Below, piece after piece: positions 6,310 through 28,861 of a DNA stretch of 28,861 nucleotides. The notes under the pieces are model-generated. The model had not been told where the DNA came from and did not search any database. It worked only from the letters and a program-made list of their open reading frames with translations. Position numbers and translations under genes: made by a program. This DNA comes from a virus (lineage: Duplodnaviria > Heunggongvirae > Uroviricota > Caudoviricetes). The number at the start of each line of letters is the position of its first letter. Position 1 is the stretch's first letter. The stretch lies in the IMG/VR virus record IMGVR_UViG_2695420523_000005. One strand, given 5' to 3'.

Positions 6310-9300
6310 TCACAGACGGCCAATTCTTACTCGTAAGACGTTGTTATCGTCATAAACGTCAATCCGCTGACCATTTATAACCAATCGCCCATTGCCGCCG
6401 CTATTACCGTTGATCTCAAGCGTTCCATTTTTGCCGAACCGCCATCCAGATCTACCGCTAACAAAATTGGTAGATTGCAGATCGCCTACTTTTGCATTGG
6501 TGATTGTGCCATCCTTGATATACGCTCCATTCATATAGGCGATACTGTTTTCGATAACAAATGGCGTTGTGATCTTCCCGTTAACAGAGTTGACCAAACC
6601 AAACCTGTCCGCCTGAACCAAAAACTGAGATAGCCCAGTGGTGTCAATACCAAGCGCAATACCGGCAACATACTTCTGCCCTCCGCTCGTTGAAGTCTCC
6701 ATTTTCAACGTCCACGCGGTTGACACTTTTTTGTTGGTATCAGCAATAGCTGTTGCCTGCTGTTGAATTGTCGCGGTATTTCCATTCACCTCTGCTTTCA
6801 GAGTATCGATTCGCCCACTCAGAGCATTATCTGCCTGCGTTCTCGCTTTCGTTTCAGTTGTGACCGCCGCGGAAATGTTGGCTGCCGTTTGAGACTCTAA
6901 GTTTGTGATTTGAGTCGCCAATGCAGCATCTTGCTCTGTACGCGTTTTCGTTTCGGTTGCTACAGCCGCTTTAATATCCTCTTTGTATTGAGAGGTCAGC
7001 TTGGTGATCTGAGACGACAACGCCGAGTCAGCATCAGTTCGAGCCTGCGTTTCAACTGCAACGGCCGCACTAATATCTTTCGCTGTCTGTGCTTTTAAAC
7101 TTGAAACCTCTTTTGTTAAAGCGGTATCACCATCTGCACGAGCCGTTGTTTCTCTGGCAAGAGACGCCTTGAGATCATTAGCTTTTGCTGTAAGAGACGT
7201 AATCTGGGTAGACAATGCACTATCGGCATCAGTCCTTGCTTTTGTCTCTACAGCAACCGCTGCGGCAATATCAGTTCCGGTTTGTGCTCGCAGGCTGTTA
7301 ATTTCTCGTGAGAGCGCCTGGTCAGCACTTGCTCTGGCCTCCTGCTCCTGAGTGATGGCAGCGGATATATCACCGTCAACCTTTGACTGAAGCTGGTTTA
7401 TTTGTTTGGCTAACGCAGAGTCCCCGCTTGCTCGGGCCTCCTGCTCACTGCGTATTGCAGCAGAAATATCATCATCAACCTTTGCCTGAAGTTGGGTGAT
7501 CTGGCTTGCCAGAGCCGAATCTTCCGTTGCTCGGGCTTCTTGCTCTTCCTTAATAGCTGCGACGATATCGTTGCTTACTTTCGACTCAAGCTGAGTGATT
7601 TGTGTCGTCAGAGCTTCATCGGCAGATGTACGAGCCTCCTGCTCTGTACTAATCGCCGCGCTGATATCTCCTTCAAACTTAGATTGCAGCTGAGTGACAC
7701 GCTTTGCCAACGCTTCATCGCCATCGGCACGAGCGGTGGACTCTTCCAGAATACTGGCCTTAATGTCTTCGCCAATTTCTACGCGAATTTCCTCAACCTT
7801 CGTGGCCATTGCAGACATATCATCAGCAAAGGTTTTCTGTGTTGTTGCGATCTTCGCGTTATTGACCATCTGCTTGTGCTGGTCTTCATCTTGACGAAGA
7901 GCCAGGTCAATATTTGTTTTGGCCAAAGCCTCAATGTTCGTAGTCAGTTCTGCACTGGCACGATCGACCTCTGCAACCGTCTTTTTCATTTCTTCAACGG
8001 CAGCGGAGCTTTCCTCTACCGTTGACTGTAACACTTCCAGTTGTTTAGCGTTTGCAGCATCACCTTCAACACGAGCCTCGCTTTCCTTAGCAATAAGAGC
8101 CGCCGCTTCATCTCTTGCAGCCTTTATTGCCTCGACTGTATTAGCGAGAGCTTTATCGTGTTCAGATACGGTGTTTTCGATTTCAACAATTGCAGCATCA
8201 GTAGCATCAATTTTTTCAAACGCTTCATTGACCTTGTTAATCGTTGCCGAAACCTCACCTTTAAGCTCGGTTTGTGCGTTCTCCAAAGCATCGCTACGCT
8301 CGTTGAATTTTATTTCAAAACCCGCGAGGTTATCGCTGAACTGCTTATCTAATTCAGCTATATCTTCCTTAACGTCGTTTACCGCCCCCTCTAAAGATTC
8401 GACGCTCTGGTTGATATGCTCATTTAACTCGTCAACTGCTTCTTGAGAGACTTTGCTGTTGATGTCCTCAAGCAGAGCCTGACCAAGCTCGGAAGATGTA
8501 ATTTTGCCAGTCAGGAACGACAGTACATCGCGAGTTGTCGCCTCTGTACCCAAGTTTGAGTTCGGAGGACTTAACATACCTCGCTTGTTCGATGCTCGAA
8601 CCCAGTAATACCACGTTTCGCTATCCCCAAGACCAGCATGTGTAAAGGTGGTGCTTGCAGACTCTGCGATCAGTTTCGCCGTATCCAGATTGTTGGTCTG
8701 GGATGCGTAAACATTAATGTGATCAAGGTCTACCGAATCTGGATTAACCCAATTCAGTATCACATTACGATAGTCTCCAACGGCCGTTAATGACGTTGGG
8801 GCATCAGGCGGTGTCATTGTGCCCAACACCTGATAAACGGTACTGATAATCTCTGTTTTTTTACCGTTGAATGAAACCGCATACAGCTGGAAGTCGTAGC
8901 GTCCATTCTCCGCGACATTAACGATTTCGTATTGCTCTTCGGTTACACGCGCCGATTGCCAGTTCGATACATTGTTTTCATCAGAACGTCGCCAACTGAT
9001 CCAATACTCTGGAGATTTCCCTTCCCATGTTGCAGTCAGTTTTACTGACAGGTTGCCCGGGCTTGAGAGATAAGTCCCTTCAGTGATTTGCAGATTAGAT
9101 GGCTTGGAGTAAGTTGGGTCCAATACCGTCGTATTCTGCGGGATCAGCGTTGCACCATTGTCGATTGCCTCATATTTAGACGGATTGTTCTCAACAGCGG
9201 TGATGTCAAAGCTACCCGACGTTTCCCCCTGTGCGATGTTAACGATGCGAACGCGCATAGGTTCGAGATCTGATTCTGTAATTGTCCAGACACCGTTCAA

Positions 9301-19672: not shown

Positions 19673-19692
19673 TAGTAAGTATATACTTACTA
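19673..19692. promoter_or_regulatory. Perfect 20-bp AT-rich palindrome tagtaagtatatacttacta upstream of the major tail gene (recurrent TACTTAC junction motif)
   Basis: The sequence equals its own reverse complement; lies between the upstream stop (19699) and the major tail start. Confidence 0.4.
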
Positions 19693-19698
19693 ATTGAG

Positions 19699-23204: not shown

Positions 23205-23214
23205 TTCTCGCTCC

Positions 23215-23245
23215 TACAAAAAGGGTGGGCGTATAGCCCACCCTT
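23215..23245 (-). terminator. Intrinsic terminator-like stem-loop downstream of the major capsid gene
   Basis: Perfect 10-bp stem aagggtgggc/gcccaccctt with loop gtata (23221..23245); on the minus-strand RNA it is followed by UUUUUG, then GGAG and the next ATG at 23204. Confidence 0.7.
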
Positions 23246-23250
23246 TAACA

Positions 23251-23268
23251 TAGATAATTACTTATCTA
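23251..23268. promoter_or_regulatory. Junction motif tagataattacttatcta (imperfect palindrome), just after the major capsid stop
   Basis: 17 of 18 positions identical to the copy at 26674..26691; arms tagataa / ttatcta are reverse complements. Confidence 0.4.
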
Positions 23269-23277
23269 CTGCACTGA

Positions 23278-24153
23278 TTAAATTTTTACATTGGTCAGTG
23301 CAGCGATAGCCTTATCGTGCTTATTCGCCAGAGAGCAGTACCACTTCACACGGGTACGTACTGCGTCTTTGTTCTGTACAGTACCAATGTTTTCAACAAC
23401 GATACCTGCGTTGTCGCCGCCATACAGACCAGTAACGCCGTTCTCTTCTGACAGATGCAGGCAGTAGATGCTTGCTTTACCAGCATCGGTCGGGATGAAG
23501 TCGTTGATGATGAACGGAACGCCGTTATGACACAGCATCGGACGACCAAAGTTCTCCATCATGATTTCAGACGGACCTACGTTTACTGTACGCAGCAGCG
23601 CACGGTAAGCACGAAGGTGCTCTGAACGCATCATGATGCAGTCAGCACCAAGATCTTTCACCGCATCGACCAGTTCGTCGAACATAGAGAAAGTCATAGA
23701 TGCACCGGCGATATCGATCTTCTGATCTGCGTGCATCAGGCGTGGAATGCCGTCAAACGCTTTGTTGTTGGTGCTGGAGTCACCCAAAATCAGATTGCGA
23801 CGGAACGCACGAGCCAGACCTTTAACTTTCTGACGAACCTGAATAGCCAACTGGTTATTGGTGTCGGCCATAGTGGTTGCCAGGAATTTATCAACGTCTA
23901 CGTCACCAGCCAGAATACGCAGTTTCGCAACGCATTCTTCGAAGGTTGCTGCACCTTCAGTGATGGTGTCGTTAACGTCGATGAAGGTAGCTTCACTCAG
24001 CGTTTTTTCACGATTGTACAGATATGCCTTTGAATTAATTTTCATAAAAGGCAGGATGGCAAACAGGTCATCGCGATCAATGATAGTTTCGATCACACCC
24101 TGTTCGAGTTCGTTGTTAGACAGCTTTTCAGCTTCTTCACGCAGTAATGGCAT
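23278..24153 (-). CDS. Major capsid protein
   Basis: 291-aa ORF between scaffold and decoration candidate, followed by a strong intrinsic terminator; assignment by position and size, family not identified. Confidence 0.7.
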   Translation of the reverse strand: MPLLREEAEKLSNNELEQGVIETIIDRDDLFAILPFMKINSKAYLYNREKTLSEATFIDVNDTITEGAATFEECVAKLRILAGDVDVDKFLATTMADTNNQLAIQVRQKVKGLARAFRRNLILGDSSTNNKAFDGIPRLMHADQKIDIAGASMTFSMFDELVDAVKDLGADCIMMRSEHLRAYRALLRTVNVGPSEIMMENFGRPMLCHNGVPFIINDFIPTDAGKASIYCLHLSEENGVTGLYGGDNAGIVVENIGTVQNKDAVRTRVKWYCSLANKHDKAIAALTNVKI

Positions 24154-26673: not shown

Positions 26674-26694
26674 TAGATAATTACTTACCTATCG
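26674..26694. promoter_or_regulatory. Junction motif tagataattacttacctatcg overlapping the large terminase stop, upstream of the portal start
   Basis: Near-identical to 23251..23268; same TACTTAC core as 985..997, 6261..6279 and 13171..13194. Confidence 0.4.
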
Positions 26695-27945
26695 AGAACC
26701 ACCAAGAATAACACGGTTTTTGACTGGATACCTACGATGTACTGGATAGCCCAATGCGTCTGCACTATGCTCAATGCCACCTGTCTTATCCATATCTCGT
26801 GTTCCAGGCTTGTAGATGACTTTTTCCAGTGAATCAATCAAATGCTTGCACTTCGGATCGATATACAGCCGGATATCTCCAGATGCGGACATCAGCATTC
26901 GGTTAACAGCATTAACACGATCCGCAATTGGCGGGTGCTTTTTCGAATAATCGACACGTAAGAATCCCTTCTCTTTGAATATGTCTACGTCAGACTCCCC
27001 ACGAGCATGTTGGCGATAAGCACCTGCCGGATCTGGAAATACCGTTACCTGTGATTTCCAGCGCCAGAAGCGTCTCTCAAGCTCATCACAAACTTCTGCC
27101 GTGTTAGAGGAAAAGAGCACCAATTCATCAATTGCCCATAGCTCACCATTTGGCTGAGGTTGCAAAATTACTGAAGACATCGGGTCAATGTTGAAGTCCT
27201 GCCCTACCCATATAGGCAACCGAGGGTTGAACTGAAGCGGTTTTACATGCACGTTACGATCGAACGGGTAGTAAACGCGCCCGGACATGTTCTCAAAGCT
27301 GGCCAGGTACTCCTGAGCGAACGATTTGGGGTCCATATCGTTCTTAGCAGCTTCAATTTCCGCCGTAGGTACAAACGGAGAATCGGCAGTTACAAACTGC
27401 CAGCTCTTCCACTGTCCCTTTCTTTGCAGCTCTACGTTCTGGCCTATCGTCCACAGTTTGTGAAATTCCGAGAAGCCTTTTGGCGTACCAATGATCAGTG
27501 CACCGCCGCGTGTCGATGAAAGAGTAGGTCGTAACACCTTGTACCAGGTGTCAGCCTTCATATCCTGAAATTCATCAAGCACTACAAAATGCAACGCTAC
27601 GCCGCGCAGAGTGTCAGGCTTATCAGCACCTTTGAGGGCGATCTCCGAACCGTTCTTCAACACGATTGTCATCGTGGTGTCGTTCTTTTTCCTAACCCAC
27701 TTACGAGGCAGAACTTCCTGTAGATCGTCCCACAAAATCTGGCGAGCCATCTGGTAAGTAGGAGCGACATACCAGACCCTTTGCTTTTTTTCCTTTGCCG
27801 CCGCACGAATAATAGTGGAGATCGACAACCGAGATTTTCCCCAGCGTCGACCAGCACAAACAACTTTAAATCGATGCGGAGACTGGAAGACTTTCATCTG
27901 TCCAGAATGCAGTTGCACAAGACTGAGCGAGGACGGGATTGCCAT
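26689..27945 (-). CDS. Terminase large subunit
   Basis: N-terminal Walker A-like motif (CAGRRWGKS) followed by an acidic DE-type segment (FVVLDEFQDM); start ATG overlaps the terS stop (TAATG). Confidence 0.85.
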   Translation of the reverse strand: MAIPSSLSLVQLHSGQMKVFQSPHRFKVVCAGRRWGKSRLSISTIIRAAAKEKKQRVWYVAPTYQMARQILWDDLQEVLPRKWVRKKNDTTMTIVLKNGSEIALKGADKPDTLRGVALHFVVLDEFQDMKADTWYKVLRPTLSSTRGGALIIGTPKGFSEFHKLWTIGQNVELQRKGQWKSWQFVTADSPFVPTAEIEAAKNDMDPKSFAQEYLASFENMSGRVYYPFDRNVHVKPLQFNPRLPIWVGQDFNIDPMSSVILQPQPNGELWAIDELVLFSSNTAEVCDELERRFWRWKSQVTVFPDPAGAYRQHARGESDVDIFKEKGFLRVDYSKKHPPIADRVNAVNRMLMSASGDIRLYIDPKCKHLIDSLEKVIYKPGTRDMDKTGGIEHSADALGYPVHRRYPVKNRVILGGSR

Positions 27946-28577
27946 TATTCGTCCTCCCCTTCACTTCCATCATCTGTCGCATCAAATTCGCTTAGAGCTT
28001 CTTCTTCCAACGTCTCAAGCAATTCGTCATCGATGATTTCAGGCTCGTCGTCTTCCTGACGTAATTTCGCCACCTGGGAAGGCGTAAGCTCACCAAATAC
28101 CAGGTTCGGAATTTCTTCCTCGTCATTTTCCGCATGATCCATGCCCAATGCTTTGGACGAAACTTCAAAGCATTTTGCAAGGGTATTACTGGCTCTCTGT
28201 AAGCTCTTGAGAGAATCCTCAATCGCCCCTAAAGGCTTACCCTCACGTTTGGCCGTAGTGACTTCGACCATCACCATCTGCCCCAACGCATACGCCCAGC
28301 CGTCATAATGTGTACGACGTTCTTCTATCTTTTCCGCACGGGCTTTAGCGCGAAGCTCCGCGTCAGATTTAAGAGACTCACGAACCATCTTCCCAACAGA
28401 GTCCGCGCCTTTCTCTAATCCTCGCTTTTTGAAATGTCTGGAGAGTGTTTCACGACGAATGCCGTACTCTTCCTCCAGCTTTGAGAGTGTATATTCGCCT
28501 GACGTCCATTTGGCTTCAGCTTCGGCCCACTCCGCTGGTGTCAGGCGAGTTTTTACCTCGTCTTTTTCGACCGTCAT
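27945..28577 (-). CDS. Terminase small subunit (N-terminal HTH-like DNA-binding region, acidic C-terminus)
   Basis: 210-aa ORF directly upstream of and coupled to the large terminase; ATG 28577 with GAGGG upstream; C-terminus very acidic (DDGSEGEDE). Confidence 0.65.
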   Translation of the reverse strand: MTVEKDEVKTRLTPAEWAEAEAKWTSGEYTLSKLEEEYGIRRETLSRHFKKRGLEKGADSVGKMVRESLKSDAELRAKARAEKIEERRTHYDGWAYALGQMVMVEVTTAKREGKPLGAIEDSLKSLQRASNTLAKCFEVSSKALGMDHAENDEEEIPNLVFGELTPSQVAKLRQEDDEPEIIDDELLETLEEEALSEFDATDDGSEGEDE

Positions 28578-28582
28578 AGATC

Positions 28583-28656
28583 CCTCTAAAACACACAGAG
28601 CGCGTCCATGCGCTCTAAAACAACTTGTTTACTGCATCTGCTAACCAACTTGTTTT
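28583..28656. promoter_or_regulatory. Direct-repeat cluster and stem-loop immediately upstream of terS (candidate packaging or late-regulatory site)
   Basis: ctctaaaaca at 28584 and 28613 flanking hairpin agagcgc gtccat gcgctct (28598..28617); caacttgttt at 28621 and 28646. Confidence 0.4.
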
Positions 28657-28692
28657 CTGGGGTGTTTAATTAGGTCTGGCATGTCTTACGAA

Positions 28693-28746
28693 GCCTGCTT
28701 CCGTATATATTTAATAAGTTACTTATTATTTATATATACAGAAGCA
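28693..28746. promoter_or_regulatory. Long AT-rich imperfect palindrome upstream of terS, abutting the IS1 end
   Basis: cctgcttccgtatatatttaataag / cttattatttatatatacagaagcagg are near reverse complements around a ttac centre; the last two bases of the right arm belong to the IS1 terminus. Confidence 0.45.
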
Positions 28747-28861
28747 GGTAATGACTCCAACTTATTGATAGTGTTTTATGTTCAGATAATGCCCGATGAC
28801 TTTGTCATGCAGCTCCACCGATTTTGAGAACGACAGCGACTTCCGTCCCAGCCGTGCCAGG
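28747..28861 (-). mobile_element. IS1 terminal fragment (inverted-repeat end plus 3' end of insB), truncated by the window edge
   Basis: 28747.. reads GGTAATGACTCCAACTTATTGATAGTGTTTTATGTTCAGATAATGCCCGATGACTTTGTCATGCAGCTCCACCG..., which I recognise as the reverse complement of the IS1 right end. insB stop codon at 28763..28765 on the minus strand. Confidence 0.9.

Follow-up and report, generated by a model that had tools for sequence, protein, structure and literature searches.

The interval described here lies 1–170 nt upstream of the start codon of the probable small terminase gene, terS, in the 28,861-nt IMG/VR virus record IMGVR_UViG_2695420523_000005 (the window, by which we mean the whole stretch of DNA analysed). 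The window derives, as judged from its sequence, from an SSU5-type phage-plasmid, and with moderate confidence we read the interval as transcriptional punctuation together with a control region, situated where the late operon of this element (packaging, head, tail and lysis genes) begins. It contains a long hairpin-forming palindrome, two copies of a short operator-like palindrome and a GC-rich leader hairpin (Table 1). An earlier note, made from the letters alone, had proposed a late control region or a pac site at this position. The first proposal gained support from an operator that occurs genome-wide in promoter-proximal positions, from the terminator-like leader hairpin and from the presence of the long palindrome in three copies at operon boundaries. 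The second, which was argued from short direct repeats bound by TerS, did not find support on those grounds, no repeat being specific to the terS locus.

In the arrangement that we propose, the 55-bp palindrome (ca. 100 nt with its outer stem) would act in the sense RNA as a terminator or insulator, or possibly as a processing site, so that transcription of the upstream operon coding for ParB-like, ABC-type and 88-aa proteins would be kept out of the late genes. A non-canonical promoter with a TAATTAAACACC box would come next, followed by one or two copies of AAACAAnTTGTTT that would be bound by a dimeric phage-plasmid regulator. The conserved GC-rich leader hairpin and its U-run, 20 nt before the start codon, would then work as a leaky intrinsic terminator, providing a second checkpoint of the antitermination type ahead of the ribosome-binding site. 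In this window, IS1 has been added to the arrangement, at the base of the palindrome.

The long palindrome and its three copies

The earlier note had rightly recognized a long AT-rich palindrome, although its limits are 28694–28748 instead of 28693–28746. The outer arms (28694–28710 and 28732–28748) are 17 nt long and 94 % complementary, and the inner arms occupy 28704–28719 and 28721–28736. The arms have the sequence CCTGCTTC(C/T)GTATATAT, with 17 bp conserved around an AT-rich spacer of ca. 21 bp, and 0.08 matches to this motif are expected by chance. An outer inverted repeat, GGTCTGG/CCAGACC, lengthens the hairpin to ca. 100 nt, and the pairing of this outer stem is kept elsewhere with other sequences (AACTGGAGT/ACTCAGTT in L017, and TCTGGGG/CCCCAGA in L037). 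Folded as RNA, the intact intergenic region had a z-score of −8.1; an Rfam search of the region returned only sub-threshold matches to microRNA hairpins and no Rfam family.

The near-identical phage-plasmid Cyrano contains three copies of the palindrome, of which c1 precedes terS, c2 lies between the ParA cassette and the g31-helicase-primase block, and c3 follows the adenine methyltransferase gene. A scan of IMG/VR with the exact arms produced 94 matches, 93 of which were in the contexts of c1 (41), c2 (23) or c3 (29), and the pattern GTTCCCAT...ATGGGAAC was too unspecific for scanning the collection. Arms are identical among the copies of the same genome and lineage-specific between genomes, and the spacers vary in both sequence and length (19–65 bp). 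Moellerella pW1-b has its own arms, CCTAGCTCCCATAGTATTTATA, at all three homologous contexts, suggesting that the palindrome family is old and evolves in concert. Four relatives were also examined whose TerS is 50–58 % identical; gene order is kept in all of them, each with a different long hairpin before terS. A scan with the hairpin from one of the more distant Klebsiella relatives (TerS 53 % identical) recovered only unrelated terminators, and its intergenic region had no match in PLSDB.

The 55-mers of c1 and c2 are identical to each other in many genomes, which implies copying between the two sites and supplies a practical cause for contig breaks. To the left of c2 the sequence is wholly different between genomes (L069, L060, L085, L088 and L103), with the breakpoint exactly at the arm, whereas the right flank, on the side of g31 and the helicase gene, is conserved; the palindrome thus marks a boundary of module exchange. 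The palindrome is also found in the 51.6-kb Cronobacter plasmid pCsaCS931a, in a c3-like context (methyltransferase, palindrome, small gene, RNase H), and BLAST gives three matching places in this record; pCsaCS931a may be a reduced SSU5-type element.

This family resembles REP/BIME elements and the centromere repeats of N15, being a small set of near-identical palindromes located in intergenic positions or at operon ends around a replicon and subject to concerted evolution. It differs from them in the number of copies, three to five only, in its 17-bp arms with a long AT-rich spacer, and in positions that are conserved across genera; besides, there is no RAYT transposase here and no evidence of binding by a partition protein.

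A terminator or insulator hairpin is the leading, although not secure, reading of the palindrome, and would place RNA 3′ ends at the base of c1, c2 and c3. Of 12 palindrome elements compared, nine have a more stable fold on the sense than on the antisense strand, by 0.8 kcal/mol or more, and in three the two strands are about equal (within 0.1). For c1 this advantage reaches 5–8 kcal/mol in E. coli, Cyrano, SSU5 and Moellerella, which represent two independent lineages. Substitutions at arm position 9 can nearly always be paired on the sense strand (90/93, namely 54 T.G, 29 C-G and 7 T-A), the three others being C.A. Additionally, U-runs directly follow c2 (GCAGGTCTTTTAAA) and c3 (GCAGGCTGTTTT), as is characteristic of intrinsic terminators. 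Published RNA-seq data from LF82 are consistent with termination at c2: in five broth and macrophage conditions, log2 values go from 8.6–10.4 for CYRAN_30 to 2.6–4.2 for CYRAN_31, on the other side of c2, and in plain LB from 5.7–5.8 to 2.3–2.9 (PMC9928086). From these published values, the transcript drop across c2 exceeds 100-fold. Across c1, from CYRAN_123 to terS, transcripts fall 2.5–3.5-fold, at near-background levels (PMC9928086).

The same copies can be viewed as DNA-level sites for a co-evolving phage-plasmid protein, that is, as lytic origins, centromere-like sites or sites for recombination and module exchange, an explanation that we hold to be unlikely but by no means negligible. 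As origins, they would consist of inverted binding sites around an AT-rich unwinding spacer, and the copy next to terS would be no more than one member of the set. The constancy of the arms within a genome, their divergence between lineages and the variation of the spacers agree with such a role. So do the positions of the copies, because c2 lies past the ParA cassette and immediately ahead of the g31-helicase-primase block, and c1 sits at the end of an operon coding for a winged-helix protein of 88 aa and two ParB_N proteins. The mosaic breakpoints exactly at the left arm of c2 and the short CCAGAC/TCTGG repeats that flank the palindrome copies point in the same direction. However, neither the advantage of the sense-strand fold nor the G.U-type substitutions are expected of a site in duplex DNA, and the steep drop in transcripts past c2 is more simply explained by termination. 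GC and AT skews showed a monotonic rise driven by co-directional genes and no origin signal, the ParB-like proteins of the upstream operon contain only the ParB_N domain, without a recognisable DNA-binding helix-turn-helix (HTH), and the protein that would bind the palindromes is itself hypothetical.

The hairpins might instead be RNase III-type processing sites and not terminators, which appears very improbable to us. Long co-directional transcripts would be cut to operon-sized mRNAs, leaving a protective 3′ hairpin on the upstream product and a defined 5′ end for terS. The structure is suitable: it offers a near-perfect duplex of 17–25 bp together with an outer stem and an internal loop, and folds best on the sense strand; c1 lacks a U-tract, and genomes with several similar copies recall the early RNA of T7, which carries related RNase III sites. 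However, processing alone would not cause a drop of more than 100-fold past c2, and both c2 and c3 carry U-runs.

Several other types of site were considered and dropped. An N15-type telomere site is at odds with the circularity of the plasmids and with the lack of an annotated protelomerase gene in Cyrano. The LexA box was discarded because CTGT and ACAG are ca. 45 bp apart, and not 8, and a site for the integration host factor because there are two mismatches to the consensus and the motif is palindromic. A miniature inverted-repeat transposable element would require target-site duplications, which are absent, and a tyrosine-recombinase site does not fit because the palindrome does not lie beside int and because deletions would arise between three such copies.

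Operator-like repeats and the leader of terS

As previously noted, the sequence caacttgttt occurs at 28621 and 28646, where it forms part of longer, 17-nt repeats (28618–28634 and 28643–28659) that are 88 % identical. On the coding strand these repeats read AAACAAGTTGTTT and AAACAAGTTGGTT, i.e., the 13-bp palindrome AAACAAnTTGTTT. No other 6-N-6 palindrome of Cyrano is as over-represented as this one, which has nine exact copies there, and allowing up to two mismatches there are 27 sites in that genome vs. 6.7 expected. Nearly all the intergenic sites are situated 12–40 nt 5′ of start codons and share their upstream context, preceding ca. 15 other genes, which include those for ParA, the replicative helicase and RNR-beta and a dozen small genes. 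The aligned contexts have the consensus GATAAT(T/A)AACACCAnCAAGA-AAACAAnTTGTTT, and that of the terS copy is TAATTAAACACCCCAGA. In the window, AAACAANTTGTTT has two matches with up to one mismatch vs. 0.15 expected, and the terS-proximal pair are the sole two AAACAAnTTGTTT sites in the 28.8-kb late region.

A short palindrome in many promoter-proximal positions and with a common context is what a regulon operator looks like, and we take this pattern, which comes from sequence comparisons, as the signature of a regulon operator/promoter element and not of an array specific to TerS. Since the same promoter-operator unit occurs before ca. 15 other genes with early, replication or partition roles, a dimeric regulator probably co-controls terS with that regulon; the candidates are the annotated repressor CYRAN_45, the regulators CYRAN_37 and CYRAN_114 and the 88-aa winged-helix protein. 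The −10-like box upstream of the distal copy (Table 1) would belong to the promoter from which terS is transcribed, with a predicted transcription start ca. 7 nt 3′ of TAATTA (ca. 28656–28660).

The number of operators before terS varies with a 26-bp indel (ca. 28631–28656 in the window): relatives from E. coli, Salmonella, Yersinia and Citrobacter have two, and those from Klebsiella have one only, the distal copy being absent because of the indel. Within the family, only the E. coli/Salmonella/Klebsiella branch has the motif. The sites are comparable to the 13-bp OB palindromes recognized by KorB of RK2 (TTTAGCSGCTAAA) and to the C1 operators of P1, in that they are 13-bp palindromes with a free central base and occupy more than a dozen promoter-proximal positions, which, as in those sets, extend to phage functions and to the partition operon (ParA). 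In contrast to them, the sequence is different, the ParB-like proteins are of the ParB_N type only and the motif is limited to one branch.

The leader hairpin, placed before at 28598–28617, does exist but spans 28596–28617 on the minus strand, with the halves AGAGCGC and GCGCTCT around a 6-nt loop. It is the sole terminator-like site in the 800 bp scanned, and combines a GC-rich stem-loop with a U-tract on the transcribed strand, as intrinsic terminators do. The stem is kept and the loop is variable across E. coli, Salmonella, Yersinia, Citrobacter and Klebsiella. Stem pairing holds in 95.8 % of the cells of the alignment, and the changes observed in it comprise one compensatory change from GC to AU, in one lineage, and three G.U wobbles that can pair on the sense strand only. 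We consider this terminator-like hairpin a candidate attenuator, with RNA 3′ ends predicted at 28588–28596. The Shine-Dalgarno sequence AGAGGG is invariant in the aligned relatives from the same bacteria.

The two exact copies of ctctaaaaca that had been reported are indeed present, at 28584–28593 and 28613–28622. Two or more independent pairs of exact direct repeats of at least 10 nt did not occur in any of 300 dinucleotide shuffles of the 169 bp, and any single pair occurred in 1 % of them. Nevertheless, ctctaaaaca is not conserved as a repeat, the first copy being TTTAGGAG or TTTAAGAG in other lineages, and it is a lineage-specific by-product of two junctions, that of the operator TTGTTT with the stem and that of the U-run with the ribosome-binding site.

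The layout recalls the late leader of lambdoid phages (pR′-qut-tR′ before Nu1), where there is also a promoter, a terminator-like hairpin within tens of nucleotides and a small-terminase gene heading a very long late operon. Unlike in those leaders, no Q-like antiterminator or qut site was identified here, the promoter is non-canonical, and the U-run is short and interrupted by G. These parallels with the lambdoid, KorB/C1 and REP/N15 systems are resemblances and not assignments to those families.

A number of observations weigh against transcriptional punctuation and control as the function of the interval. The sequence that follows c1, CTTCGTAAG, does not have the U-tract of an intrinsic terminator, so c1 may not terminate by an intrinsic mechanism. 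Conserved arms with divergent spacers fit recognition by a sequence-specific protein better than a plain terminator, and the bias towards the sense strand could have been inherited from direct duplications. The covariation term from RNAalifold was around zero for the palindrome, and covariation was weak for the leader hairpin, with 52 of 500 shuffles being as good. The transcript evidence concerns c2 in a lysogen and not c1 during lytic growth. As to the control elements, a scan of the interval did not detect a canonical sigma-70 promoter with −35 and −10 boxes, and the operator motif is absent from Moellerella intergenic DNA, so that this part of the region is lineage-specific. Finally, the regulator that would bind the operator, and any protein that would read the palindrome, are predictions.

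The palindrome and the packaging question

The interval is next to the small terminase gene, where a pac site could be expected, but we found no repeats specific to this locus and conserved along with the terminase. Both ctctaaaaca and the operator repeats are absent from the relatives in Moellerella and Xenorhabdus, in spite of their conserved terS and terL. A pac array of direct repeats is therefore unsupported, because the repeats are not specific to terS, the second operator is missing in Klebsiella and the ctctaaaaca repeat is not conserved. As to a cos site, which should be single copy, the palindrome is present in three copies with the same arms, and the large terminase does not belong to a cos-type lineage, which is a phylogenetic inference and not proof. 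Proximity to terS, dyad symmetry and short repeats are shared with the pac of SPP1 and the cos of lambda; in contrast to these, the repeats here are not unique to the locus, TerL is not of the cos type and there are three palindromes per genome. In lambda, moreover, cos separates the end of the late operon from Nu1, whereas any counterpart in this interval would be hypothetical.

The linear record of SSU5 (JQ965645) opens with AATATATACGGAAGCAGG and closes with the left arm and the whole spacer, its break being at the spacer/right-arm junction, equivalent to 28711/28712 in the window and 133 nt before terS. Apart from this start, nothing in the region speaks for a physical end, and the start itself is ambiguous between a real end and an assembly artefact. 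The record of Cyrano starts within 1 nt of the same place, but we rejected it as independent support because Cyrano is the re-annotated plasmid pLF82. A bacterial draft contig (L259, 1–40) starts inside c2, at the arm/spacer boundary, and another contig from the same IMG genome (L058) ends ca. 60 nt after its palindrome (8397–8451). Since a draft contig also starts at this boundary of c2, it follows that assemblies break at the palindrome for technical reasons. With ciprofloxacin as inducer, Cyrano of LF82 is induced 39-fold; in LF82 virome reads (ERR8973296), its coverage did not exceed the level of plasmid contamination estimated for them.

It is conceivable, although we judge it quite improbable, that c1, perhaps with adjacent sequence, is the cos or pac site of the adjoining TerS and TerL, and that the ends of the SSU5 record are the real virion ends, at the spacer/right-arm junction. 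The record was obtained from virion DNA and breaks exactly at an arm/spacer junction, a point that would not be an obvious one to choose arbitrarily; and because c1 and c2 of SSU5 share only blocks of ca. 20 nt, a repeat-caused break would not be obviously expected in an assembly of long 454 reads. The position is also classic, given that lambda cos and SPP1 pac are packaging sites immediately upstream of terS, and a hairpin or palindrome is located there in all four divergent relatives examined. Conversely, the start of Cyrano is not independent, a draft contig breaks inside c2, and a literature search found no paper describing the termini of SSU5. The product of terL has Terminase_6N as its best Pfam match, and its distant relatives (ca. 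25 % identity) are from Jersey-like phages, T5-like phages and mycobacteriophages such as Cuke, Papyrus and Gumball, which we take to be headful or terminal-repeat packagers and not cos phages. Besides, with the same arms at two further loci of each genome, the palindrome alone cannot specify a unique cut.

The palindromes could also constitute lineage-specific, multi-copy cis elements of an undescribed kind, read by a co-evolving protein, the terS copy being the true site for packaging initiation or end formation, in keeping with where the SSU5 record begins and ends, and the others being lytic origins, centromere-like sites or module-exchange sites; we regard this combination as rather improbable. 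In summary of the packaging evidence, a pac or cos site near terS is possible, and the features named in the earlier note do not indicate packaging.

Phage-plasmid setting and the IS1 end of the window

The assignment of the window to the SSU5 type comes from comparisons in which the last 460 bases up to position 28749 were 100 % identical to many E. coli plasmids of ca. 110 kb, and the same interval showed 83 % identity to Salmonella phage SSU5 and 76 % to SSU5-like phage-plasmids of Klebsiella. E. coli, Salmonella, Klebsiella and Yersinia pestis commonly harbour phage-plasmids of the SSU5/pHCM2/pMT1 type, which carry resistance genes. A search of the literature found nothing published on how their late genes are controlled, on their operators or on their packaging site, and did not find the motif sequences; the palindrome and operator sequences appear to be undescribed. 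The elements are ordinary in kind, and what is new is the map they provide for a widespread and poorly characterised family. The 13-bp operator regulon, the three-copy boundary hairpin and the candidate leader attenuator before terS are testable handles, which could serve to ask how 28 kb of virion genes stay silent and then switch on, and the map also points to the first place for mapping the packaging site.

Table 1. Position of the features described in the text, in coordinates of the window
Feature	Coordinates	Strand	Remarks
Probable small terminase gene terS, 210 aa	27945..28577	-	From position and predicted architecture; heads the late operon
Shine-Dalgarno AGAGGG	28582..28587	-	5 nt before the terS ATG; read from the sequence
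Leader stem-loop	28588..28617	-	GC-rich stem of 7–8 bp (28596–28617), 6-nt loop, then UGUGUGUUUU (28588–28597)
Proximal operator-like palindrome AAACAAGTTGTTT	28618..28630	-	Exact match to AAACAAnTTGTTT
Distal operator-like copy AAACAAGTTGGTT	28643..28655	-	1 mismatch; 25 bp from the proximal copy
−10-like box TAATTAAA, then ACACC	28665..28672	-	Context common to other operator sites
Outer-stem half CCAGACC	28673..28679	-	Promoter side; partner GGTCTGG beyond IS1
55-bp hairpin-forming palindrome, copy c1	28694..28748	.	Centre at ca. 28720/28721
Right end of IS1	28747..28861	-	At the palindrome base; the window ends inside IS1

On the minus strand, terS (27945–28577; start codon 28575–28577) is followed by terL (26689–27945), the portal gene and the remaining virion genes, with the stop codon of terS overlapping the start of terL. 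The deduced product of terS matches PHROG 867, annotated as 'DNA binding domain', and its AlphaFold2 model has an N-terminal HTH (residues 14–52) and then long helices (residues 58–143), with a pLDDT (predicted local distance difference test) of 74. No sequence match was obtained for it in Pfam, NCBIfam or PDB, nor any significant fold match, including solved TerS structures, and as there is no significant PDB match its assignment as TerS rests on position and architecture. The interval itself contains no plausible open reading frame, as already stated in the earlier note; the only frames are one of 48 aa that enters IS1 and another of 71 aa antisense to terS, both spurious.

In intact relatives the stop codon of an 88-aa gene is located 24 nt beyond the palindrome. 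This is the last gene of an operon, directly upstream of terS, that also codes for two ParB_N proteins and two ABC-type ATPases, and which (4374–7547 in L001) is kept at this place across the whole family, in E. coli as well as in Moellerella and Xenorhabdus. The 88-aa protein shows weak winged-helix hints only, with a weak match to the LexA DNA-binding domain (E = 0.07). Beside this weak match, the palindrome arms contain a LexA-like half-site, CTGTATAT, which is a lead only.

The last 115 nt of the window are identical (115/115) to the ends of IS1A/IS1B, and the same sequence is found in at least 5000 plasmids. The last two or three bases of the palindrome (ggt) are common to the first bases of IS1. 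The insertion parts the palindrome from the 88-aa gene upstream and from the partner of its outer stem; in intact relatives the palindrome runs on into tctttaaataagctcccagacc instead. The junction with IS1 was absent from 5,426 complete E. coli genomes (no records covering at least 80 % of the query), which suggests that the insertion is private to the source of the window. Read-out from IS1 into the late operon is conceivable, its transposase genes presumably pointing towards terS.

Within the late region, a canonical intrinsic terminator, AAAGGGTGGGCTATACGCCCACCCTTTTTG, is present at ca. 23205–23260 on the minus strand, just past the gene for the major capsid protein (23278–24153). The motif TACTTA recurs on the plus strand between late genes (984, 6269, 13182, 19684, 23259, 24180, 25082 and 26682), its form on the coding strand being GATA(A/G)GTAAGTA... 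It is often part of mini-palindromes of the type TAAGTA-NN-TACTTA, such as AGTAAGTATATACTTACT at ca. 19676–19693, and often overlaps stop codons, with TAGGTAAGTAA providing a stop in all three frames. In Cyrano, TAAGTA-NN-TACTTA is the second most over-represented 6-N-6 palindrome, with five exact copies.

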